Positions 39,465 through 51,849 are shown, counted from the stretch's first letter. The stretch is DNA of 64,000 nt from Gemmatimonadales bacterium (GCA_037189525.1 JBBCJC010000005.1:416001-480000); one strand, 5' to 3'. A program made the numbers and translations. Notes: generated by a model from the sequence alone, not told the origin.

Positions 39465-40274
39465 ATGCGCCCATGCCTGATCGGGCTTCCCTACGACGCC
39501 AGTTCGTCCTTCCTCCGTGGCCCCGCCGAGGCGCCGCCCCTGATCCGCGCCGCGCTCAACAGCCCAGCGGGCAACCCGTGGACCGAAACGAACCATGACC
39601 TGAGCGGCCCCACCGGACTCGCGGATGCCGGCGACCTCGTCTTGCCTCCCGACGAGCGGGCGCGCGCGCTGATCGAGGCTGGGGTGCGTTCGGTGCTGGA
39701 CGCGGGCAATCGGCCGATCGCGTTAGGCGGCGACCACGCCGTCACCTATCCCGTCGTTCGTGCGGTGGCCGCACATCATCCGGGTCTGACCATCGTGCAC
39801 ATCGATGCCCACGCCGACCTCTACGAGGATTTCGAGGGCGACCGGTACTCGCACGCCTGTCCGTTCGCCCGGATCATGGAAGCCGGTCTGGCGAGCCGCC
39901 TGATTCAGATCGGGATCCGGACCCAGACCGCGCACCTGCGGGAACAGGCCGAGCGGTTCGGTGTCGAGATGATCACGATGGACCGGTGGGTCGAGGGCGT
40001 CCGGCCCCGCACCGAGGGACCGGTGTACTGGTCGATCGACCTCGACGGCATCGACCCCGGGGCAGCTCCCGGCGTCTCGCATCGGGAACCGGGCGGCCTT
40101 TCCGTGCGCGACGTGATCACCCTGATCCACCAGCTCGGCGGCGATGTAGTGGGCGGCGACGTGGTCGAGTACAACCCGCGCCAGGATCTGGGCGGTGTTA
40201 CCGCAGTCGTTGCCGCCAAACTCGTGAAGGAGTTGGCCGGCCGGATCATGACCGACATATCGGCCCAACCCTAG
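39465..40274 (+). CDS. Ureohydrolase (agmatinase/arginase family)
   Basis: GGDHAVT, DAHADL, SHACPF, SIDLDGIDP..APGVS, DVVEYNP. Confidence 0.9.
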   Translation: MRPCLIGLPYDASSSFLRGPAEAPPLIRAALNSPAGNPWTETNHDLSGPTGLADAGDLVLPPDERARALIEAGVRSVLDAGNRPIALGGDHAVTYPVVRAVAAHHPGLTIVHIDAHADLYEDFEGDRYSHACPFARIMEAGLASRLIQIGIRTQTAHLREQAERFGVEMITMDRWVEGVRPRTEGPVYWSIDLDGIDPGAAPGVSHREPGGLSVRDVITLIHQLGGDVVGGDVVEYNPRQDLGGVTAVVAAKLVKELAGRIMTDISAQP

Positions 40275-40570
40275 CCCGGCGGGGCAATCGAGCGGACACG
40301 CTCGAATCTGACGCCGAAGGCGTCCGCCCAACCCGGGCGATGCCAGACATATAAGGCGGCGATGCGGAACCGCGCCGCGGTTCGCAGGCGTTGTCGTTCG
40401 CTGCCCTCGCGGCTGGAGGGTAGCTACTGGCGATACAGACCGCCCTCCTCAGAAACTCCTCAATTTCGTGAGACCGGACCGGTGGCCGGCACCTGACCCG
40501 TCCATCGATACGACATCACCAGGAAACCAAAGCTCAGAAAACGGGACTGTCAAAACGCCAAAGATTAACT

Positions 40571-40610
40571 ATAATTGGTTATTAATGGGTATTATTGGTG
40601 ATAATTGGGT
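40571..40610. repeat. Four tandem 10-bp AT-rich direct repeats upstream of fic
   Basis: ATAATTGGTT / ATTAATGGGT / ATTATTGGTG / ATAATTGGGT. Confidence 0.6.
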
Positions 40611-40620
40611 GGAATATGGT

Positions 40621-41655
40621 ATGATCGCATCGGAAGCTTCCCAGATTGGTCCTGAACTCCTCCGGCTCATCTCGGAAGTGGAGGAATTCAAGGGCGCATG
40701 GCGTGCGCTGGGGCGCCTGGACCCCGAACGACTCTCGACCCTCAAGCGCCTGGCGATGATCGAGAGCATTGGGGCGTCGACCCGGATCGAGGGTGGCAAG
40801 CGCTCGGACCGCGAGGTCGACGCCCTGCTCTCCAGTCACCAGATGACATCGTTTGCCTCCCGCGACGCCCGGGAAGTGGCGGGGTATGCCGCCGTGATGG
40901 AGGTCGTGTTCTCATCCTGGAACGCGATGCCCCTGACCGAGAATCTCATCAAGCAACTGCACCGCGACCTGCTGCGACACAGCGACCAGGATCGGGGCCG
41001 GTACCGGATCATGCCGAACGGTATCGCGGCCTTCGACAAGGATGGACAGCGGCTGGATGTGCCCTTCGAAACCGCGTCACCGCTCGATATTCCCCAGCGC
41101 ATGACGGAGCTGGCCGCATGGCTGGCGAACCAGCAGACGGACGGACAGCTGCATCCGCTCCTCCGCATCGGTCTCTGGGTGGCGATGTTTCTGGCGATCC
41201 ATCCCTTTCAGGATGGCAACGGCCGTTTGAGCCGAGTGCTGACCACGCTGCTGCTGCTCCAGGCAGGCTACGCCTACGTGCCGTACAGCTCATTGGACAG
41301 CGTGATCGAACAGCAGAAAGAGGCCTACGATCGGGCCGTGCGGCGTACCCAACGCGCCGTGTGGAGCGGCACGCCGGACTGGCAGCCGTGGCTGCACTTC
41401 TTTCTCCAGGCATTGGCCGAGCAAACGCGCCGGCTCGGGCGGAAGATCGAGCAGGAACAGGTACTCGCAACGCTCCCGACGATGTCGCTCCGCATCATGG
41501 ATGTCGCGCAGGCGCGCGGACGGGTCACGATGGGTGAGATCATCACACTCACCGGTGGAAAGCGCGATACGATCAAGTCACATCTGCGCGCTCTGGTCGA
41601 GCATGGCCGACTTCACCGCTATGGCCGCGGGCGGGGAGTTTGGTACCAACTGTAG
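40621..41655 (+). CDS. Fic-family AMPylase with N-terminal inhibitory motif and C-terminal winged HTH
   Basis: HPFQDGNGRLSR; STRIEG fits (S/T)xxxE(G/N); C-terminal wHTH ending GRGRGVWY. Confidence 0.92.
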   Translation: MIASEASQIGPELLRLISEVEEFKGAWRALGRLDPERLSTLKRLAMIESIGASTRIEGGKRSDREVDALLSSHQMTSFASRDAREVAGYAAVMEVVFSSWNAMPLTENLIKQLHRDLLRHSDQDRGRYRIMPNGIAAFDKDGQRLDVPFETASPLDIPQRMTELAAWLANQQTDGQLHPLLRIGLWVAMFLAIHPFQDGNGRLSRVLTTLLLLQAGYAYVPYSSLDSVIEQQKEAYDRAVRRTQRAVWSGTPDWQPWLHFFLQALAEQTRRLGRKIEQEQVLATLPTMSLRIMDVAQARGRVTMGEIITLTGGKRDTIKSHLRALVEHGRLHRYGRGRGVWYQL

Positions 41656-41772: not shown

Positions 41773-43230
41773 CTATTCCCGACGCCACCGGGACCGCGCG
41801 ACCACCCGCCCGCTCCCCGGCGATGCTCCGACACGACCCGACTCGGCCACGACCTCTCCCCGCCGGATCGTCACCACCGGACGGCCTGTTACCTCCCAAC
41901 CCTCGTACACCGAATAGTCTGCGCGCGAATGATCGTCCGCTGCGCGCACGGTCCAGCGCGCCTCGGGATCCCAGATCGCCAGGTCCGCATCGGCCCCCTC
42001 GCGAATGGCGCCCTTCCGCGGATACAGCCCGAAGATCCGGGCCGGATTGGTCGACGTCGTAGCGACGAATCGCTCGAGCGAAAGCCCGCGCTTGCGGACC
42101 CCCTCCGAGAAATAGATCGGCAGCATGAATTGCAGGTCGCTCATGCCCGGCCGCAGCTTGCCGATCGAGAGCGACGGATCGAGCTTCTGCGCCCGCGTCC
42201 AGGGCGCGTGATCAGTCGCCAGGACGTCGATCGTTCCATCGGCGAGCCCGGCCCAGAGCGCCTCGGAATCTTCCTTGGCGCGAAGCGGAGGCTGTCCAAC
42301 GAACAGCGGACCATCAGGCCCTGCAAGTTTTTCAGCGGTGTAGTGGAGATAGAGCGGCCGCGTTTCGACATAGAGCGGCAGCCCCCGCCGGCGCGCCGCG
42401 TGACAGACGGCAAGCGCCCGCGCCGAGGAGAGGTGCACGACGTAGATGGGCGCGCCGGTGCTCTCACAGAGCGCCACCGCCAGCTCCGTTGCCGCCACCT
42501 CCGCAACTTCCGGCCGGCTCTCGGCGTAGTGCGCCAGCGACGTTTGCCCAGCCGCAGTGAGTCTGCGCACCGCCGCAGCCAACAGCGCGGGATCTTCGCA
42601 GTGCGCCATGCACACCACACCAGCCTGCCTGGCCGCCTCCAGCATCGTGATCACGCCGCCCAGCTGGGCATGGAAATCCGGCATCGGCATGAAGAGCTTG
42701 GAGCTGGGATGCCCCGCCGCCGCCATCCCGTCCAGCGCCGCGTTGAACTCGGCGGTAGGTGGCCAGGCGACGCCATGGAGAAACAGATCTGCGATAACCT
42801 GCGCGCCCGCCTGCTTCGTCATGCGGGCAATCGCATCCAGCACCGTTTCGCCCGAGCGCGCAAAGGCGAACGTGCCCACGCTGGTAATTCCGCCTGCGAG
42901 CGCGGCCCGAGAACCGCTCTCCAGATCGTCCGCAAACGATCCGTCGATATGGGTGTGCGGATCGACGCCGCCCGGCATGACGAGCTTGCCGCGCGCATCG
43001 ATCACCCGCGTGGCAGCGGTCGAACGCAGCCCGGAACCGATTTCGACGATGCGGGCGCCCGCGATCCGGATGTCGGCTTCGCGGACACCATCAGTGTTGA
43101 CCACCCGACTACCGCGAATCAGGAGTTCCCGCGTCTGGGCCCGGAGCAGACCAGGACGCCCGGCGGCAATGGTCAGCGAGGTTGCCACGGCGACACGAAC
43201 GGCGTCCCGGCGGCTGGGCAGGTCAGACAT
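41773..43230 (-). CDS. Cyclic amidohydrolase (dihydropyrimidinase/hydantoinase-like) with twin-Arg signal
   Basis: PGGVDPHTH, KLFM, HCED, VHLSS, ATDHAPW, NPARIFGL..KG, DADL; N-terminal SRRDAVR plus hydrophobic stretch. Confidence 0.88.
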   Translation of the reverse strand: MSDLPSRRDAVRVAVATSLTIAAGRPGLLRAQTRELLIRGSRVVNTDGVREADIRIAGARIVEIGSGLRSTAATRVIDARGKLVMPGGVDPHTHIDGSFADDLESGSRAALAGGITSVGTFAFARSGETVLDAIARMTKQAGAQVIADLFLHGVAWPPTAEFNAALDGMAAAGHPSSKLFMPMPDFHAQLGGVITMLEAARQAGVVCMAHCEDPALLAAAVRRLTAAGQTSLAHYAESRPEVAEVAATELAVALCESTGAPIYVVHLSSARALAVCHAARRRGLPLYVETRPLYLHYTAEKLAGPDGPLFVGQPPLRAKEDSEALWAGLADGTIDVLATDHAPWTRAQKLDPSLSIGKLRPGMSDLQFMLPIYFSEGVRKRGLSLERFVATTSTNPARIFGLYPRKGAIREGADADLAIWDPEARWTVRAADDHSRADYSVYEGWEVTGRPVVTIRRGEVVAESGRVGASPGSGRVVARSRWRRE

Positions 43231-43298: not shown

Positions 43299-44591
43299 CT
43301 ACCAGCCACTCCATGCGGCCGCCGCCGCGGTGTCAACACGACCAGCCGCGACGTCAGCAAGCGCCTCGCCTATCAGCGAGACACCGCGCTCGGCCTCAGC
43401 CTCACTCAGCACCAATGGCGGAGTCAGTTCGAGGACTTTGTTCTCTCCTCCCACGTAGTAAAAGAGCAGGCCGAGTTCCCAGGCACGGTAGCACACCATG
43501 CGGGCATGGTCCGCCGATGAGCAGGTCGATGAACTGCCCAGTTCGATACCCAGTACCAGGCCGCGCCCCCGCACCTCGCGAACCAGCGGACTTCTCGCGG
43601 TAACCTCTTGCAGGCCGCGGCGCAGCAGCGCTCCGACCCGCTCTATCCGGCGGATACTCTCATCGGACCGGATCGTCGTCACAACGGCCAGCGCCGCAGA
43701 GGCGGTGACCGGGTTCCCCTGGGTCGTCAGCATCGCCCCTGAAGGCAGTGCCTCCATCAGCGCAGCTGGCGCGATGACGGCCGAGATCGGCAGGCCACCA
43801 CCCAGACCTTTGCCGAGCACGATCAAGTCGGGCCGAACGCCGTCCCATTGGTGCGCATACAACTTGCCCGTCCGGCCGAGCCCGACCTTTACCTCGTCGG
43901 CAACGAGCAATGTCCCATGCCGGCGACAGCGCTCCGCCACGCCGGCCAGAAATCCGTCGGGCGGAACGATCAAACCGCCATCCGAGAGGATCGGCTCGAA
44001 GAACAGGGCGGCGACGGAATCTCCGGCCAATGCACGATCCAGCTCCTTCAGCACCGCCCCCGCAGCGGACGCATCGCGCGGATAGTCGAGTTGCACAAGG
44101 TCCGCATGGCTCCCTGCCCCGCTCAACGCCGCATGGCCGGAGATCGCCATGCCGCCGCCGAAGCCACCATGATACGACCCCTTGAAGCTGATGACGCCCT
44201 TGCGAGACCCCGAGGTGACCAGACGGAGCGCCATGTCGGCCGCATCGGTGCCCGAGTGCCCGAACCAGACCCGACGATCGATACCGTCAGTCCGGGTGTC
44301 GAGCAGCGCTTCCGCCAACTCGACTGCCGGCGGGCTGACGAGCGAGAGGGAGCCGACCCCGGCCATGGTCCGAACGCCGCGCTCGACCGCATCGACGACG
44401 GCGGGATGCGCATAACCGAGTGATGCGGCGCCCCATCCCGCGGAGAAATCGAGGACGCGCCGGACACCGGGTTCGATCAGCCAGGAGCCCTCGCCGCCGA
44501 GCGCAACCATCGGATGGAAGCTCAGCTTACCGGGAAGCCCGAGCGCGGCGCGATCCCGCGCCAGCCAGCTTTCGCGGGTACCGTCAGACAT
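43299..44591 (-). CDS. Class III (omega-amine) PLP aminotransferase
   Basis: LDFSAG, SYHG, FEPILSDGG, DEVKVGLGRTG, GKGLGGG. Confidence 0.92.
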   Translation of the reverse strand: MSDGTRESWLARDRAALGLPGKLSFHPMVALGGEGSWLIEPGVRRVLDFSAGWGAASLGYAHPAVVDAVERGVRTMAGVGSLSLVSPPAVELAEALLDTRTDGIDRRVWFGHSGTDAADMALRLVTSGSRKGVISFKGSYHGGFGGGMAISGHAALSGAGSHADLVQLDYPRDASAAGAVLKELDRALAGDSVAALFFEPILSDGGLIVPPDGFLAGVAERCRRHGTLLVADEVKVGLGRTGKLYAHQWDGVRPDLIVLGKGLGGGLPISAVIAPAALMEALPSGAMLTTQGNPVTASAALAVVTTIRSDESIRRIERVGALLRRGLQEVTARSPLVREVRGRGLVLGIELGSSSTCSSADHARMVCYRAWELGLLFYYVGGENKVLELTPPLVLSEAEAERGVSLIGEALADVAAGRVDTAAAAAWSGW

Positions 44592-45936
44592 CGAGCCGAG
44601 TCCGAATCCCACGAGCCGCGTTGACCGCGAGCACGATCGCACCAAGCACCACCCATGCCAGGCCAAGCAGCTTGGCCTGCACATCGAGGCCCCACCAGAC
44701 GTATCCGATCACGATGGCGCCCAGCAGCGGACAGATCAGGTGGACCAGATAGTTTCGGCTGCCATTCCGGATCACATAGTGGGTGACCACGCTGGCGTGC
44801 AGACAGAGAAATCCGGTCAGGGCGCCGAAGTTGACGATGTAGGTGATCCCGCTCGGATCACTCTGATAGACCAGACCGATGACCAGCGAAATGATCGCGA
44901 CGGCCAGCAGCGCAACGTACGGGGTCCGGAACTTGGGATGCACCTGAGCCAGCGGAGCCGGCAGCAGGCGATCGCGCGCCATGCTGAACAGGATGCGCGA
45001 CACCGCGCTCTGCGAAGCTTGCGCCGCCGTTATCCCCCACGAGAAGGCCGTCATCCCGGCGCATAGGGTATAGAGAAACTTGCCGCCGGCGATGGCCGCG
45101 ACGTTGTAGAAGCCGTTGTCCGGATCGGCCGCGAGCGCCTGCCAATCGGGCTGCAGATTGCCGGCAACGAACGTTTGGATCATGAAAAAACCGGCGACCA
45201 GAAAGAGCACCATGATCGTGGCCCGGCCCGCGCTGCGGCCGCCCCCGTGCGCCTCCTCGGAAAGCGTCGAAATCGCATCGAACCCCAGGAAGCTGAGCAC
45301 CGCGATACTCGCCGCCGTCATCAGCGCGCGGAAATCGAGATTACCCGGATCGAGAATCGGTTTGCTGGTCCACCCTTCGCCCGCAGCACCGGTGCTGACT
45401 GCGTAGATCCCGAAGCCGAGAAAGAGCGCCAGGGTTACGAACTGGACTGCGAGCACGATCCGGTTGAACCGCGCGCTGACTACGACGCCCCGATAGTTGA
45501 TCGCCGTGTTGGCCAGCGCAAAGAGGACCAGCCAGCCCCAGAGCGGAACCACCGGAATCATCCCGGCAAGCGCGATCGACGCGAAGACGTAACACAGACT
45601 CGGAATCAGCAGGTAGTCTATCAGGATCATCCATCCGGCCAGAAACCCGAATCGGCTGCCGAACGCGCGCGAAGCGTATCCATAGACCGACCCCGCCGTC
45701 GGGACCGCCTTGGCCATCTCGCTGTACGCCAACGCGGTGAAGAAGATCCCCACGGTACAGATCAGGTAGGTGAGCACCGGCATGCCGCGGGACTCGGTTG
45801 CCACGTAGCCGTAAATCCCCATCGGGGCAATCGGCATGATGAATACGAGCCCGTACACCACCAGATCCCAGGTCGACAATCCCCGGTGCAGTTCCTCCTG
45901 GTAGCCCAACTCCTGCAGGGTCTTATCGTCCGCCAT
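44584..45936 (-). CDS. APC-family permease, PuuP/PlaP-like (amine/polyamine importer)
   Basis: About 12 TMs; AGSVYGYA, GWMILIDY, SFLGFDAISTLSEE, SRILFSMARD, NFGAL. Confidence 0.88.
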   Translation of the reverse strand: MADDKTLQELGYQEELHRGLSTWDLVVYGLVFIMPIAPMGIYGYVATESRGMPVLTYLICTVGIFFTALAYSEMAKAVPTAGSVYGYASRAFGSRFGFLAGWMILIDYLLIPSLCYVFASIALAGMIPVVPLWGWLVLFALANTAINYRGVVVSARFNRIVLAVQFVTLALFLGFGIYAVSTGAAGEGWTSKPILDPGNLDFRALMTAASIAVLSFLGFDAISTLSEEAHGGGRSAGRATIMVLFLVAGFFMIQTFVAGNLQPDWQALAADPDNGFYNVAAIAGGKFLYTLCAGMTAFSWGITAAQASQSAVSRILFSMARDRLLPAPLAQVHPKFRTPYVALLAVAIISLVIGLVYQSDPSGITYIVNFGALTGFLCLHASVVTHYVIRNGSRNYLVHLICPLLGAIVIGYVWWGLDVQAKLLGLAWVVLGAIVLAVNAARGIRTRLDV

Positions 45937-46714
45937 CGACGGTGGCCTCCGTGGCGTATTGGGTGGTTGCGCGCAGGGCGCCGGCGAGCCGGTCGGCCCA
46001 GAGACCGATGTCGGCGGCACTGCCCAGCAAATCGTGACGAACTTCGAACAGCACAGCGGCAAGGCCCCGGGCATCACCGTGTACCGGCACGGTATAGTCG
46101 CCGTCGGGATGAATCGAATACGGCTCATTGGCGCCGATGATCAGGCCCGGCGCTTCCAGTGCGGCCACCAGCGCGTGTCCGAAGCCGGCGGCCCCACCGA
46201 ACAGCACCCCGGCATGCCAAGGGCGCCGTACCCCGCGGAACACCGGAGTAAAGCTGTGGACTCCGACGACGACCGTCGCCGATCCGGCGGCCTGACGCCG
46301 GTCGAGATGATGCGCGACCGCGTCGTGGTAGGGGGTGAAGTAGCGCGCCGCGCGATACACTCGTTCCTGAGGGTCGAGGCTCACATTGCCTGGAATGGCC
46401 GTGTCCTCACTGCTGGTCGGGATGCTATCTGGCGCAGCGAGCGGCCGATTCGGATCGATCAGCAACCGCGAGTAGCCATGCAGGAAGAGCGGCGCGTCCA
46501 GCCGAGCGGCCAGTTCCCGCGCCAACGAAGCAGCGCCGAGATCCCAGGCGATATGCCGGGAGAGATCAGGCTCGGCGAGGCCCAGGCCGCCGTACCGCGC
46601 CGGCATGAATCGCGACGCGTGCTCGCACAGCAACACCACGTGGGAGCTACCCTGCTCGTTGACGACTTCGACGACCGGGGGCTCCGACCGATCATCCTCC
46701 ACAAACGCCGTCAC
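45923..46714 (-). CDS. N-formylglutamate amidohydrolase family protein
   Basis: CEHAS, HIAWDLGA, SRLLIDPNR, PYH, HSFTP, NEPY, EVRHD. Confidence 0.92.
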   Translation of the reverse strand: MTAFVEDDRSEPPVVEVVNEQGSSHVVLLCEHASRFMPARYGGLGLAEPDLSRHIAWDLGAASLARELAARLDAPLFLHGYSRLLIDPNRPLAAPDSIPTSSEDTAIPGNVSLDPQERVYRAARYFTPYHDAVAHHLDRRQAAGSATVVVGVHSFTPVFRGVRRPWHAGVLFGGAAGFGHALVAALEAPGLIIGANEPYSIHPDGDYTVPVHGDARGLAAVLFEVRHDLLGSAADIGLWADRLAGALRATTQYATEATVDGGR

Positions 46715-48049
46715 TCAATACACCGATGCGTACTTGGCGGCGAGATCCGCCGGCGATAGTCCCGCCACGAGTTCGCGCTCCTTGGCACGCATCGCGCGAT
46801 ACCCGGCGAGCATCTCTTCGCTGAACCACCCCGACACAACGGCATCCGCCTCCAACGCCGCCAACGCCTCGGTCTGGGACGACGGCAGACGCCGAACACC
46901 CAATGCTTCGCGCTCTCCGTCGCTCAGAAATCCGGGATCGATGTCGACCAGCGGAGGTGCCGGGAGATTCGCCTCGAGCCCTTCGATTCCCGCGCGAATG
47001 ATGGCGCCAAGCGCCAGGTGCGGACACGCGGACGCGTCGAGCGCGCGATACTCATAGTGGAGTTGCCGAGCCGGATCGCCGCCCCCGAGCGTCGTGGTGG
47101 GACAGATCCGGAGCGTGGCCTCCCGGTTCCGATCGCCGAAGCAGGTCCAGGCTGCGCTCCAGTGGTGCGGTACCAGGCGCGCATACGAAATCACGCTCGG
47201 CGCGGTCAGGGCGCACAACGCAGGCAGATGCCGAATGATCCCTGCCGCGAAGCGACCGGCCACCTCCGAGATCCGTCCGGGACGCTCGGCATCGAATCCA
47301 ACCGGCTGCCCCGCCAGGTCGGTCAGACTGACATGGACATGGACACCGTTGCCCACACCTTCGGCCGCCGTCCGCGGAGAGAAACTTGCGCGGCTGCCGA
47401 GCAGGCGGGCAATCTCCCGGGTGACCTCGCGGATCACCACGGCGCGATCGGCGGCGGCAAGCGCGGCGGCGGGGCGACAGGTCACCTCGAACTGCCGCCG
47501 CCCGTACTCGGGAAAGAACATCTCCGGCTCCGTCCCTGCGTCATCCAGGGCACGGACCAGTACGGGACCGAGCGGATCGGCCACCCGCTGGCCCTGGAGC
47601 GAAAAGGCGGGCGCCACCGGCCCCTCACCCAGCAACTGGAACTCGTGCTCGAAGGCCGCGACGACCTGGAAGCCGAGCGCCTCCAGATCACGGATGGCGC
47701 GACGGAGAAAGGTGCGCGGACAACAATCCCACGGCGCCCCGTCGGTACCGACGATATCACACTGATAGGCGTGCAGCGCCGAAGCGCCTGGCAGTTCCGC
47801 AACCGAGAAGCCGGCATCCGGATCGGGGAGGAGACGCAAGTCGCCGCTCGATCCCCACGGATTGTCCGGGCCGATCGGATCGAACGCGGTAATCGCGGCG
47901 TTGGCGGGTACCCAGCCGCAGCCCTTGCCCAGCCAGCGATCGAGATCGGCATAGGGCACCGCCCTGCCCCGTGTAATACCGGCCCAATCCGTCGTCACGA
48001 AGCTGACCAGTTCCGAGCCCGAGATCTCGATATCCTGCGCGTTGGCCAT
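46715..48049 (-). CDS. Glutamine-synthetase-like gamma-glutamyl-amine ligase
   Basis: CCPRTFL, AFEHEF, EYGRRQFEV, GNGVHVHVSL, NREATLRIC, EYRALDA. Confidence 0.9.
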   Translation of the reverse strand: MANAQDIEISGSELVSFVTTDWAGITRGRAVPYADLDRWLGKGCGWVPANAAITAFDPIGPDNPWGSSGDLRLLPDPDAGFSVAELPGASALHAYQCDIVGTDGAPWDCCPRTFLRRAIRDLEALGFQVVAAFEHEFQLLGEGPVAPAFSLQGQRVADPLGPVLVRALDDAGTEPEMFFPEYGRRQFEVTCRPAAALAAADRAVVIREVTREIARLLGSRASFSPRTAAEGVGNGVHVHVSLTDLAGQPVGFDAERPGRISEVAGRFAAGIIRHLPALCALTAPSVISYARLVPHHWSAAWTCFGDRNREATLRICPTTTLGGGDPARQLHYEYRALDASACPHLALGAIIRAGIEGLEANLPAPPLVDIDPGFLSDGEREALGVRRLPSSQTEALAALEADAVVSGWFSEEMLAGYRAMRAKERELVAGLSPADLAAKYASVY

Positions 48050-48087
48050 GCGAGTTCCGTCTCCCGAAATATGAGTGTGCGGTAATG

Positions 48088-48753
48088 TCACCGGCCAAGC
48101 CGGGCGAGCCGATCGACGACGGTATCCGTATCGGCGATCCAGCAGTAGCCGCGCAGTGCCCGCAACGCCGCTTCGTGACGTTCCTCCGATGCGGCAACGC
48201 AGGCATCGTGGACCAGCGTGACCAGATAGCCGCGATCCGCCGCATCGCGCACCGCCATGTCGACGCACTGATCCGTGACCATACCTGCCACGATCAGGAA
48301 CCGGGTTTCCAGATTAGTCAGGACGTAGTCGATCGCCGTCGAGTTGAATACGCCGGACGAAGTCTTGGGCAGCACGATCTCGTTGGTGACCGGCTCGAGT
48401 TCCGGAATCACTCGCCCCAGCGGCGAGCCTTTCGGCACATGGATCGGCGAGAGCTTGTGATCGAGGGAGCGATCCCGTCCGTCTTCGGTCAGGCTCTCGA
48501 TGATGGTATGGACCACCTGGATTTGCGCAGCTCGCGCCGCCGCAAGCAAGCGGCGCTGTCGAGGCACCACCCACTCACGCAGTTCGTGATAGAGGTAATC
48601 GTCTGGCGAGGCGTCGGGATAGGCCGGATCGAGCCCCGGCTCCACCCAGATCCGCTGCATGTCGACCAGCAGCAGCGTGACATGGTTCGGCGCGTACGGC
48701 ATGTCTCGCGCAATGGTCCGACCGCCCTGCGTGATTTCAACGCGTGTGCCCAT
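48088..48753 (-). CDS. Isochorismatase-family cysteine hydrolase
   Basis: D-K-C triad in LLVDMQ, PKTSSGVFNST, TDQCV. Confidence 0.92.
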   Translation of the reverse strand: MGTRVEITQGGRTIARDMPYAPNHVTLLLVDMQRIWVEPGLDPAYPDASPDDYLYHELREWVVPRQRRLLAAARAAQIQVVHTIIESLTEDGRDRSLDHKLSPIHVPKGSPLGRVIPELEPVTNEIVLPKTSSGVFNSTAIDYVLTNLETRFLIVAGMVTDQCVDMAVRDAADRGYLVTLVHDACVAASEERHEAALRALRGYCWIADTDTVVDRLARLGR

Positions 48754-48756
48754 CGG

Positions 48757-49638
48757 TCAGTTCGCTTTCTCGATCGATCCTTGATTGATCATCTCGGCGC
48801 GGAGAGCCTCGAGCCGCCCCAGCCGGGTCCGCGCTTTGTCGCCCAGCCGGGCGGTCACGGCGGCGACGAACGCTTCGACCTGGGCCAGCGCGGGCACCAG
48901 GGAATCGAACGGCGAGATCGTCTCGACCGGCGCCGCAATGACGGCGTCCGCAAGGCGCGCAATCGGCGATCCCGAGCCGTCGGTAAAGAGCAGCAACTGC
49001 GCACCGGACGCCACCGCTTGCTCGGCAAACCCGATCACGTCGGGCTGATAGCGGCGGTAGTCGAACACGATGATGACATCCCGAGGGGTCATGTCGATCA
49101 GACTGTCGACCAGCACCGCCCCGCTGCCGTCGAGCCAGGCGCAATCGCGACGCAAGAGCCGCAAATGTTCCCAGAGGTACCCGGCCAGGAACCGGCTGAA
49201 CCGGCCGCCGAGGCAGTGGATCCGCTGACGCCGGTCGGCGACGAGCTCAACGGCGCGGTCCCATTCCGGTTCGGCCATCAGATCGCGGGCGCCAGCAAGG
49301 CCATGCGCCGCCGAGGCCAGGAATGCCCCATACAGGTCGTCCTGGGCAAGGGCTTTCCGGCGTGAGGCCAGCAGCGTCAGCGGCGAACTCATCCGCTCGC
49401 TGACCTCGGCCAGCACCGCCTGCTGGAATTGGGCGAACTGCCCGAAGCCGAGCTTCTGCACCAGGCGCATGACGGTGGGGTCGCTGACGCCCGCGCGCTC
49501 CGCCAGAGCGGCCACCGTACCGAGCCCCGACGCGGGATAGTCGGCCAGCAGCGTCCGCACCACCTTCCGCTCCGACCGGGTGTAGTCGTGGGTCGGCTCG
49601 CGCAGGAGTTGTCGAATGGTCTGACGGGAGCGGGCCAC
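48757..49638 (-). CDS. RpiR/MurR-family transcriptional regulator
   Basis: TRSERKV...LAERAGVSDPTVMRLVQKLGF HTH plus SIS domain. Confidence 0.93.
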   Translation of the reverse strand: MARSRQTIRQLLREPTHDYTRSERKVVRTLLADYPASGLGTVAALAERAGVSDPTVMRLVQKLGFGQFAQFQQAVLAEVSERMSSPLTLLASRRKALAQDDLYGAFLASAAHGLAGARDLMAEPEWDRAVELVADRRQRIHCLGGRFSRFLAGYLWEHLRLLRRDCAWLDGSGAVLVDSLIDMTPRDVIIVFDYRRYQPDVIGFAEQAVASGAQLLLFTDGSGSPIARLADAVIAAPVETISPFDSLVPALAQVEAFVAAVTARLGDKARTRLGRLEALRAEMINQGSIEKAN

Positions 49639-49657
49639 CGGCGGCTACCTCGACGAA

Positions 49658-49711
49658 TGTCGGAATCTCAACAATATCGCACTCCTCGTAAAAAATGTAG
49701 CTCTATCGACA
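49658..49711. promoter_or_regulatory. Two candidate RpiR operators (TGT-N10-ACA)
   Basis: TGTCGGAATCTCAACA (49658-49673) and TGTAGCTCTATCGACA (49696-49711) just upstream of the regulator start. Confidence 0.5.
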
Positions 49712-49806
49712 GCGGTGTCCTCTGTTGCCAGACCGTCCGCCGTCAGGTAAGCTTGGCATTCACCCTACAATTCGACTTGCATCGCCCGTCCCCCGAGGAG
49801 GATCGC

Positions 49807-51849
49807 ATGCACTTCACCCCGACGCTCAGGCTCGGCCTCGTGCTGGGACTGACCACTGCCGGCGCCGGCGTGCTCTCGGCACAGGCTCCACGCACCGACC
49901 GCCTGCAGCTGGCCGACTACCTCGATTTCGAACAGGTCCAGGCGCCCCAGCTGTCGCCTGACGGTCGCCAGGTCATCTATGGCCGGCGCTGGGTCGACAA
50001 GCTGAACGATCGCTGGGAAACGTCGATTTACCTGATGAACAGCGACGGATCGCGCCCCCGCGCGCTGGTCACCGGCGGTTCGCCGCGGTGGTCTCCCGAC
50101 GGCTCCCGGATTGCCTACGTGGCGCGGGGCGAGCCGAGTGGCAGCCAGATCTGGGTGCGCTGGATGGACGCCGAGGGCGCGAGTACGCAGATCACCCGCC
50201 TGGCCGAAGCACCGGCCGACCTGGCCTGGTCGCCCGACGGAAAGTGGATCGCGTTCCGCATGCTGGTGCCCGAAACCGAAGGCTGGAAAATCGAGGGCCA
50301 GGTCGGCGCCCTCAAGCCGCGCGGCGCGACCTGGACGCAGGCGCCGCGGGTGGTCGAGCAGGTCACCTATCGCCGCGACGGGCAAGGGTTCATCCGCTCG
50401 GGGACCCAGCAGCTCTTCGTCGTCCCGGCTGACGGCGGCACGCCCCGCCAGGTGAGCAACGGCGACTGGAGTGTCGGCGCTCCGGCGTGGCTCCCCGATG
50501 GGCGCACCATCACCTTCTCCTCCGGTCCCCGGACGGAAGACGCCGAGTATTCCTGGCGCGAGTCGGACGTGTTTTCGATCGACGTCGAAACCGGCGCCAT
50601 CAAACAGCTGACCACGCGAAAGGGTCCGGACAACGGCCCGGTTCCCTCCCCCGACGGGAAACAGATTGCCTACACCGGCTATGACTGGTCGACCGATACC
50701 TGGATCGATTCGAAGCTCTACGTCATGAATGCCGATGGCAGCGGGTCTCGAATCCTGGCGGACATCGACCGGAGCCCCGGCAGCCTGACCTGGGCCCATG
50801 ACGGAAGCGGGGTCTATTTCACCGCGCAGAGCGAAGGCAGCCAGAACCTGTGGTTTGCTCCGCTGCGAGGTCAGGCACGCCAGGTCACCAAAGGCGTCCA
50901 GATGCTCGCCGTATCCGACATCGCGCGCGACGGCACGGTGCTTGGTACGCTGAGTTCGTTTCACGAGCCCGGTGATGTCGTGACGTTCAACCTGCGCGCC
51001 CCCGATGCCTTCAAAAAGCTCACCGATGTCAATGCCGACATCCTGACCGGCAAGCGCCTCGGACAGGTCGAGGAGATCTGGTATACCTCGGTCGATGACT
51101 TGAAGGTACAGGGCTGGATCGTCAAGCCGCCGGATTTCGACCCGTCACGCAAGTATCCGATGATGCTGGTGATCCACGGCGGACCGCACTCGATGTATAA
51201 CGTCGCCTTCAACTTCGGGTGGCAGGAACATGCGGCCAACGGTTACGTGGTGCTCTACACCAATCCGCGGGGCAGCACGGGATACGGCAGCGCCTTCGGC
51301 AATGCCATCAAGAACGCGTATCCTGGCAAGGACTATGACGACCTGATGCGCGGCGTCGACGTCACCATCGCCAAGGGCTACATCGACGAGCAGAACATGT
51401 TCGTCTACGGTTGCAGCGGCGGCGGCGTGCTGACCTCGTGGATCGTCGGCAAGACCGATCGCTTCGCCGCGGCCTCGGCCAACTGCCCTGTCACCAACTG
51501 GCTCAGCTTCGTCGGCACGACGGATGGCGCCACCTGGTATCGGAACTTCGAGAAGTTCCCCTGGGAAGATCCCAGCGAGCATCTCCGCCGTTCGCCGCTC
51601 ATGTATGTCGGTAACGTCAAGACGCCGACCATGCTGATGACCGGCGTCAATGACCTCCGGACGCCGATGCCGCAGACGGAGGAGTTTTACCAGGCATTGC
51701 GTATGCTCAAGGTGCCGACGGCGATGGTCCGGTTCAACGACGAATGGCACGGCACCAGTTCCAAACCGTCCAATTTCCTGCGGACCCAGCTCTACCTGCG
51801 GGACTGGTTCAAGAAGTACGCTCGAGGCGAGCAGCGAACCACGCAGTGA
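49807..51849 (+). CDS. Exported S9 family peptidase (beta-propeller + alpha/beta hydrolase)
   Basis: SD GAGGAGG; signal peptide; WSPDG repeats; IHGGPH; GCSGGG nucleophile; DLRTP; EWHG. Confidence 0.95.
   Translation: MHFTPTLRLGLVLGLTTAGAGVLSAQAPRTDRLQLADYLDFEQVQAPQLSPDGRQVIYGRRWVDKLNDRWETSIYLMNSDGSRPRALVTGGSPRWSPDGSRIAYVARGEPSGSQIWVRWMDAEGASTQITRLAEAPADLAWSPDGKWIAFRMLVPETEGWKIEGQVGALKPRGATWTQAPRVVEQVTYRRDGQGFIRSGTQQLFVVPADGGTPRQVSNGDWSVGAPAWLPDGRTITFSSGPRTEDAEYSWRESDVFSIDVETGAIKQLTTRKGPDNGPVPSPDGKQIAYTGYDWSTDTWIDSKLYVMNADGSGSRILADIDRSPGSLTWAHDGSGVYFTAQSEGSQNLWFAPLRGQARQVTKGVQMLAVSDIARDGTVLGTLSSFHEPGDVVTFNLRAPDAFKKLTDVNADILTGKRLGQVEEIWYTSVDDLKVQGWIVKPPDFDPSRKYPMMLVIHGGPHSMYNVAFNFGWQEHAANGYVVLYTNPRGSTGYGSAFGNAIKNAYPGKDYDDLMRGVDVTIAKGYIDEQNMFVYGCSGGGVLTSWIVGKTDRFAAASANCPVTNWLSFVGTTDGATWYRNFEKFPWEDPSEHLRRSPLMYVGNVKTPTMLMTGVNDLRTPMPQTEEFYQALRMLKVPTAMVRFNDEWHGTSSKPSNFLRTQLYLRDWFKKYARGEQRTTQ

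Follow-up and report, generated by a model that had tools for sequence, protein, structure and literature searches.

The described system closest to the locus considered here is the qapR operon PA5506-PA5510 of Pseudomonas aeruginosa, in which PA5507 and PA5509 are presumably a cysteine hydrolase and a member of the N-formylglutamate amidohydrolase (FGase) family, and PA5510 is an APC transporter. The glutamine synthetase (GS)-like protein PA5508 corresponds to PDB entry 4HPP, for which the catalytic residues have been tabulated (PMC6478659), and its neighbours PA5507 and PA5509 are termed only 'hypothetical' in the passages of PMC4409342 that deal with them. A limited literature search found no named substrate for this operon. 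Alpha-amino-epsilon-caprolactam (ACL) and amino-acid-amide racemases are known as industrial catalysts, and a search of the same limited kind found no physiological pathway for the caprolactam racemases, nor any link between these pyridoxal phosphate (PLP) enzymes and a cluster of GS-like, FGase and isochorismatase-type genes. The compounds on which such racemases are described as acting, alpha-amino lactams, amino-acid amides and homocysteine thiolactone (PMC7431475, PMC11391342), all combine a free alpha-amine with a carboxyl group that is blocked. We analysed a stretch of 64,000 nucleotides from a Gemmatimonadales bacterium (GCA_037189525.1, JBBCJC010000005.1:416001-480000; hereafter the window), which carries a qapR-type cluster ending in a gene that probably encodes a racemase of this kind, and we propose that the cluster serves the degradation of alpha-amino amides or lactams through gamma-glutamylation.

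Six minus-strand genes fill positions 43299-49638 of the window exactly, as seen from the open reading frame (ORF) listing and the Pfam assignments, which bears out the tight packing described in a previous, sequence-only reading of this DNA. From rpiR to the PLP enzyme gene, the first three junctions have spacers of 3, 38 and 0 nt, and at the last two the genes overlap by 14 and 8 nt. The family labels given in that reading were also confirmed, except that the functional label 'aminotransferase' of the sixth gene is probably wrong and that 'PuuP-like' amounts only to membership of the APC family; indeed, no NCBIfam model reaches its cut-off with the permease. That reading overlooked a seventh co-oriented gene, which starts 68 nt downstream of the PLP enzyme gene. 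By their content and order, the six genes form an operon of the qapR/PA5506-5510 type, for which co-transcription is proposed and a pathway is put forward below.

The assignment to the qapR type relies first on the ligase, which matches 4HPP over its full length (E 1.3e-138; residues 25-456 aligned with residues 8-443 of the chain), so that the comparison with the Pseudomonas operon is sound. The ligands of metal, ATP and glutamate align with those of 4HPP (FEHEF, PEYG...FEV, NGVHVHV and the Arg positions; roles as given in PMC6478659). Moreover, the Val of the ligase segment GCGWVPAN corresponds to V42 of 4HPP, which is set opposite D53 of GS in the table of the same paper. The score against the GlnA model TIGR00653 is 168.3 bits, far below the cut-off of 429.15, and this deficit together with the Val in place of the ammonium-handling Asp identifies a PA5508-type ligase and not a glutamine synthetase, in agreement with the sequence-only reading. 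ATP-dependent glutamylation of an amine is the predicted reaction. The five-gene order RpiR-cysteine hydrolase-ligase-FGase-APC permease is found identically at three related loci in proteobacterial genomes (L025, L026 and L030), whose permeases in the same position are 44-46% identical to that of the window; with the 4HPP match, this order sustains the likeness to qapR claimed earlier. Translation of the window ligase was taken to start at the ATG at 48049, preceded by a GGGAGA box, in a reading frame that stays open to 48268. At another related locus, L011 (10001-11321) in an alphaproteobacterial metagenome-assembled genome, the ligase gene lies in two adjoining pieces of 211 and 229 aa, which suggests a frameshift or an assembly error.

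The sixth protein, in turn, resembles racemases rather than transaminases. Among all solved structures, its seven best matches are ACL racemases and an amino-acid-amide racemase (E ~1e-107 to 1e-106, 359-363 bits; best match E 2e-107, 363 bits), with 5M46, 5M49, 2ZUK and 6GIO among them, whereas scores do not exceed 226 bits for other PLP racemases of the same fold and 198 bits for transaminases. The alignments with the racemases cover the whole protein, down to the unusual ...GW at its C-terminus, and the motifs SDGG, DEVKVGL, GKGLGGGLP and SYHG are common to the sixth protein and the ACL racemases. The PLP lysine K261, the stacking tyrosine Y140, the SDGG aspartate D204 and the DEVK lysine K235 are all conserved. 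We take the last two to be residues that discriminate this racemase family; one deposited racemase chain, 5M4D, differs from its siblings by an Ala at the DEVK Lys. In 6 orthologues from related loci, the racemase motifs show little or no variation, and K235 and the C-terminal tail are absent from all eight other class-III paralogues of the same genome. Roles for Tyr137 and for the pyridine-binding Asp238 have been described for 5M46 (PMC6424897). The sixth gene is therefore probably of the ACL or amino-acid-amide racemase type, with a predicted racemase activity on amino lactams or amides, and the earlier proposal that it transaminates a free amine is not supported by the bit scores, the motifs and the paralogue comparison. 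The database records examined label this type 'aspartate aminotransferase family protein' or 'aminotransferase class III-fold'.

The same result bears on the pathway previously suggested for the cluster, a Puu-like polyamine or diamine route in which the sixth enzyme would transaminate the free end of a gamma-glutamyl diamine and the FGase-family enzyme would replace PuuD. This route agrees with the best NCBIfam match of the ligase (gamma-glutamylputrescine synthetase, 270.7 bits for a cut-off of 650), with the tabulation of PA5510 and PA5508 as homologues of PuuP and PuuA (PMC9397018) and with the agmatinase-type gene nearby, which exceeds its model TIGR01230 (185.5 bits, cut-off 174.3). On the other hand, it sits poorly with a sixth gene of the racemase type, and PA5508 is reported in PMC6478659 as not induced by polyamines. 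Furthermore, neither a distal-amine oxidase or transaminase, nor an aldehyde dehydrogenase, nor a PuuD-type hydrolase was found among the genes scanned at ~30.5-63.7 kb. As for the ureohydrolase at 39465, which had been proposed to feed the cluster with putrescine, it lies on the opposite strand, behind the Fic-domain gene and within a variable stretch, and a homologue occurs near the ligase at only one of the 37 related loci (L019), which is without the hydrolases; this link was rejected. We consider the polyamine route very improbable.

To what extent the racemase type belongs with the ligase and the hydrolases is best seen from other genomes. Of 401 evenly sampled Pseudomonadota genomes, 10 had the ligase type and 4 the racemase type; all four of the latter carry the ligase, at a distance of 0-11 kb. 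A plasmid search with the racemase at E 1e-55 gave 84 records (a single one at E 1e-80). Among the 60 of these that were listed, 37 are alphaproteobacterial and have the ligase type within ~8 kb in every case, the ligase coordinates being taken from a complete listing of 52 plasmid records; the 23 others are enterobacterial and all have a related ligase ~1.6 kb away. The enterobacterial plasmid ligase is 34% identical to that of the window, and a near-identical protein is encoded in 47 plasmid records (45 from Klebsiella and one each from Pantoea and Pluralibacter), equal to the 47 racemase records that are not alphaproteobacterial.

The gene arrangements behind these counts differ. At L028 and L029, the module versions closest to the 6GIO racemase, the gene following the FGase scores 793 and 762 bits against this 'amino acid amide racemase'. 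The conjugative plasmid pOANT01 carries a Liv-type ABC importer, then, divergently, RpiR-cysteine hydrolase-GS-FGase-'aspartate aminotransferase family protein', behind which come an IS110 transposase and a group II intron; its racemase-type protein is 45% identical to that of the window and 53% to that of L029. Plasmids of Shinella and Ensifer are arranged in the same way, and in S. medicae pSymA the ligase is divergent from FGase-hydrolase-ABC importer-second hydrolase-racemase. The one enterobacterial plasmid examined gene by gene, an IncFIB plasmid of Klebsiella pneumoniae (L054, NZ_LR890649.1, 1588-8290), has, between IS5 and IS110 elements, members of all six families of the window cluster, in the order hydrolase-FGase-RpiR divergent from ligase-APC permease-racemase type, with the racemase motifs intact. 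The same gene set in three lineages with three gene orders argues for functional coupling.

Around the ligase at the 37 related loci, both hydrolases were found at 25, RpiR at 22, the racemase at 9, the APC permease at 4 and the hydantoinase-like gene at one (L001), proportions that do not describe a random sample, six of the loci having been chosen from the plasmid hits. In a ligase tree of 37 rows, from which L011 (split gene) and L036 (duplicate of L009) were left out, racemase-bearing loci are interleaved with racemase-free ones, with at least three label changes, so that the racemase appears as a recurrent accessory of the operon of one enzyme family and not as the mark of a clade. Importers of the module elsewhere are of amino-acid or amide types (Liv-type ABC, one TRAP, one PotBC-type), with solute-binding proteins that have distant PDB relatives only (TRAP DctP E 2e-32, HAAT-type E 2e-27). 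Other recurrent accessories are a second cysteine hydrolase, amidase-signature enzymes, ArgE/DapE deacylases and an MSOX-like flavoprotein. The latter, similar to MSOX and N-methyltryptophan oxidase, heads a divergent ABC-importer operon at L028 (12158-13324) and L029 (12049-13215). PNPOx-like and ferredoxin-reductase-like proteins follow the racemase at L007 and L029, and a 1014-aa fusion of APH, peptidase M23 and class-III PLP domains lies just downstream of the racemase gene at L027 (4720-7764); this fusion matches NF004799 with 1411.8 bits, a model named only 'hypothetical protein'.

From the observed gene content, order and packing, the orthology to PA5508, the racemase-family membership, the intact hydrolase residues, the genomic association and the patchy distribution in Gemmatimonadota, we propose that the operon imports and degrades alpha-amino amides or lactams through gamma-glutamylation, with the help of a racemase, a scheme that we place just on the probable side; the substrates, the order of the steps and the ligand of the regulator are those that we infer. 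The type of racemase and its tie to the ligase and hydrolase module point to a mobile glutamylation route for these compounds and not for polyamines. First, the APC permease would import alpha-amino amides or alpha-amino lactams, whose D and L forms would be interconverted by the ACL racemase-type PLP enzyme. Next, the PA5508-type ligase would use ATP to attach a gamma-glutamyl residue to the free alpha-amino group. After cleavage of the amide or lactam bond by the cysteine hydrolase, which would expose the alpha-carboxylate, the FGase-type deacylase would release glutamate and the free amino acid from the N-(gamma-glutamyl)-amino acid so formed. The ligase requires a free amine, and the cysteine hydrolase is expected to work on the glutamylated intermediate, since adding the glutamyl group only to take it off at once would serve no purpose. 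FGase-type enzymes, for which N-formylglutamate is the known substrate, act on amino acids whose carboxylate is free and take off the N-alpha-acyl group, which fits the order ligase, cysteine hydrolase, FGase.

In the cysteine hydrolase, D31, K130 and C163 are invariant in 11 orthologues, so its catalytic Asp-Lys-Cys set is retained. Among solved structures, it comes closest to cysteine hydrolases, biuret hydrolases and RutB, all weakly similar (best E 1.8e-17), and its nearest named models are those of biuret hydrolase, RutB and N-carbamoylsarcosine amidase; the score against the BiuH model is 76.7 bits for a cut-off of 370. By these measures, the protein belongs to a separate isochorismatase-like subfamily. 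The nature of its relatives could also indicate a ureide route, in which the hydrolase acts before the ligase. Opening of a cyclic ureide or an N-carbamoyl compound, for which the exported hydantoinase-like enzyme might serve in Gemmatimonas, would be followed by decarbamoylation by the cysteine hydrolase and by glutamylation of the freed amine. The D-hydantoinase-like seventh gene speaks for such a route as well. Its best PDB matches are hydantoinases (E 4e-76), it scores 358.7 bits against TIGR02033 (cut-off 393.25), and a twin-arginine-like signal (SRRDAV in the window, NRRQVI in L001) suggests export of a cyclic amidohydrolase; the gene may belong to the operon. Against the ureide route, the gene is present at only 2 of 38 loci, namely the two Gemmatimonas versions in the window and L001. 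In addition, a racemase that needs a free alpha-amine would have no role on N-carbamoyl compounds, and glutamylation followed by immediate deglutamylation would be futile. We regard the ureide route as improbable, and the removal of an N-acyl or carbamoyl group as the first step, suggested in the sequence-only reading, as possible and not favoured.

The last enzyme of the proposed scheme is assigned to PF05013 with 145.1 bits and is the sole copy of this family in the genome. It matches the uncharacterised Atu2144 (PDB 2ODF) at E 5e-47, and 45 alignment columns, including C30, H32, H54, D58, H153, H212 and E224, are invariant in 12 orthologues. PF05013 is also the family of HutG, the N-formylglutamate amidohydrolase of histidine utilisation, which was considered and set aside. 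Indeed, a search of the genome for its partner HutF reached 51.8 bits at best (cut-off 413), and urocanase lies ~700 kb from the cluster on the same contig, without a hut neighbourhood; a role in histidine degradation is therefore unlikely. On the other hand, the FGase-family protein SCO1615 has been predicted to cleave gamma-glutamylglycine, an N-alpha-acyl amino acid (PMC6529630), so the suggestion that an FGase-family enzyme acts as deglutamylase instead of PuuD has a published, though predicted, precedent.

A version of the scheme could also be written for lactones: homoserine lactone, derived from acyl-homoserine lactones, or homocysteine thiolactone would be glutamylated, ring-opened and deglutamylated to homoserine or homocysteine. 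Homoserine lactone hydrolyses slowly unaided, which we count against this version, and the characterised relatives of the cysteine hydrolase cleave C-N bonds, while the accessory genes of the module code for amidases and deacylases. In the opposite direction, an Amidohydro_2 protein stands beside the ligase in two distant variants (L031 and L035), and this family includes lactonases. Moreover, ACL racemase is described as exchanging the C-alpha proton of homocysteine thiolactone (PMC11391342), and the P. aeruginosa operon influences a quorum signal, as stated in the title of Tipton 2013. Taken together, we find the lactone version unlikely.

Several points weigh against the route for alpha-amino amides and lactams. 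One main weakness is that the need for an ATP-dependent glutamylation before amide hydrolysis is left unexplained by the scheme. The nearest characterised relatives of the cysteine hydrolase, biuret hydrolase and RutB, act on ureides, and RpiR/SIS regulators usually sense sugar phosphates (PMC11014249). The racemase is absent from 16 of the 25 loci with both hydrolases, including the three Pseudomonas-like ones; it is thus accessory, and what the core acts on may be broader or different. The plasmid records, in which the association was checked for the 60 of 84 racemase records listed, are not independent, since they come from many strains of few species. Finally, PA5508 is reported to prefer bulky amines such as catecholamines in vitro (PMC6478659). 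This preference, together with the initiation of aniline and 1-naphthylamine degradation by GS-like enzymes (PMC11335346), would be expected if the cluster detoxified aromatic or other bulky xenobiotic amines by glutamylation and the racemase were an unrelated passenger. Such a function is hardly likely: no oxygenase genes were detected by Pfam in the window cluster, the importers are of amino-acid or amide types, and the racemase accompanies the module too regularly to be a passenger.

A broader form of the amide and lactam scheme is that the ACL and amino-acid-amide racemases are the stereochemical funnel of a widespread plasmid-borne pathway, in which glutamylation is obligatory before opening by the cysteine hydrolase and of which the qapR operon and the Klebsiella island are versions; this extension is tentative, and we would not yet favour it. 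The families of the module are not mentioned in a preprint on nitrogen metabolism of P. putida by random barcode transposon sequencing (RB-TnSeq).

The features of the cluster and its flanks are collected in the table.

Table. Positions in the window of the genes of the qapR-type cluster and of its flanking elements
Feature	Coordinates	Strand	Basis
RpiR/MurR-family regulator, counterpart of QapR, first gene of the run	48757-49638	-	Pfam HTH_6 + SIS
Isochorismatase-family cysteine hydrolase; predicted amide/lactam hydrolase	48088-48753	-	Pfam
PA5508-type GS-like ligase; predicted gamma-glutamyl-amine ligase	46715-48049	-	Gln-synt_N_2 + Gln-synt_C; 4HPP match
FGase-family (PF05013) hydrolase; predicted N-(gamma-glutamyl)-amino acid amidohydrolase	45923-46714	-	Pfam; 2ODF match
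APC-family permease; predicted importer	44584-45936	-	Pfam
ACL/amino-acid-amide racemase-type PLP enzyme, class-III fold	43299-44591	-	PDB matches, motifs
D-hydantoinase/dihydropyrimidinase-like amidohydrolase, possible seventh gene	41773-43230	-	Amidohydro_1; twin-arginine-like N-terminus
Divergent rpiR/S9 peptidase intergenic region; likely promoter/operator	49639-49833	.	Blocks conserved with L001
S9 peptidase gene	49834-51849	+	Flanks the cluster
Agmatinase-type ureohydrolase, then Fic-domain gene	39465-41655	+	TIGR01230 match

A scan for promoters and terminators gave counts no different from those of shuffled sequence, with 4 terminator-like sites compared with 4.3 expected from shuffles, so that no convincing terminator lies inside the run. 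The same scan showed no sigma-70-like promoter site in the intergenic region between rpiR and the S9 peptidase gene (49639-49833). This region contains long blocks identical to those of L001, though flanking third-codon positions have diverged, and these blocks are candidate operator or promoter elements. L001, from an uncultured Gemmatimonas sp., is the closest public locus and is syntenic with the window from ychF past the S9 peptidase gene; the window itself is GC-rich (~0.65) and comes from a Gemmatimonas-like genome.

Lateral acquisition of the cluster, proposed in the sequence-only reading, is supported by its distribution and context. The ligase type is present in 2 of 401 Gemmatimonadota genomes, that of the window and one congener, thus in one of 147 genera. 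The Gemmatimonas ligase pair nests in an otherwise proteobacterial group, on a branch that is not strong (support 83/97). Three congeners without the cluster share prs-L25-pth-PPase-ychF with the window, and synteny stops directly after ychF (39397), which places the agmatinase, the Fic gene and the cluster in a variable stretch. The S9 peptidase belongs to a large paralogous set, for which the genomes of five congeners each show 4 to 8 strong matches, so that the left break, after ychF, is the only one that can be placed. Elsewhere the module is plasmid-borne and flanked by insertion sequences (IS). Against a lateral origin, the GC content of the cluster (0.648-0.675) is similar to that across the window, in which no tRNA, integrase or IS adjoins the cluster.

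If the proposed route is correct, it would explain two orphans together, the substrate class of qapR/PA5508 and the natural role of the ACL and amino-acid-amide racemases, and large subfamilies of cysteine hydrolases and of FGase-like enzymes that are now unannotated would receive functions. It would also add a hydrolytic variant to the gamma-glutamylation pathways. Conjugative rhizobial plasmids, Klebsiella plasmids and the Gemmatimonas chromosome all carry the module, and as it is mobile, a correct annotation would propagate widely.

Compared with the individual enzymes already described, the window racemase-type protein shares with 2ZUK, 3DXV, 5M46 and 6GIO a full-length similarity of 363 bits and the SDGG, DEVK, GK, Tyr and ...GW features; its identity to a close plasmid relative is ~45%. 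The cysteine hydrolase has its Pfam family and its Asp-Lys-Cys set in common with biuret hydrolase, RutB, the gamma-lactamase Mhpg and the streptothricin hydrolase SttH, though the similarity is weak. SttH, described as an isochorismatase-like hydrolase conferring resistance, opens the streptolidine lactam. Lactam-opening members exist in this family, as documented for isochorismatase-like hydrolases in PMC5353710 and PMC12553813.

Among whole systems, fungal FluG is related through its C-terminal domain, for which PA5508 can substitute (PMC6478659). FluG is a fusion of an Amidohydro_2 and a GS-like domain, whereas the window encodes separate proteins and lacks an Amidohydro_2 gene. An Amidohydro_2 gene adjoins a distant PA5508-like ligase under an RpiR gene at L031 (7842-9026) and L035 (10589-11725), an arrangement that, judged by its domains, is a split bacterial counterpart of the fungal fusion. 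The PuuPABCD system of E. coli and PauA-D of P. aeruginosa likewise combine an importer and a GS-like ligase, with an intermediate that is modified and then deglutamylated. They differ from the cluster, which is without oxidase or transaminase, aldehyde dehydrogenase and PuuD-type hydrolase; its middle step would instead be hydrolytic and its last enzyme of the FGase family. In the ethanolamine route of C. salexigens and of the S. coelicolor GlnA4 cluster (SCO1610-1615), a GS-like ligase is also joined with an FGase-family enzyme predicted to cleave a gamma-glutamyl amino acid, with two dehydrogenases between ligase and hydrolase where the window has the cysteine hydrolase. The closest counterpart is the qapR operon, with its full-length ligase match and the RpiR-hydrolase-ligase-FGase-permease order that also recurs at L025, L026 and L030, to which the Gemmatimonadota version adds an ACL racemase-type gene and perhaps a hydantoinase-like one.

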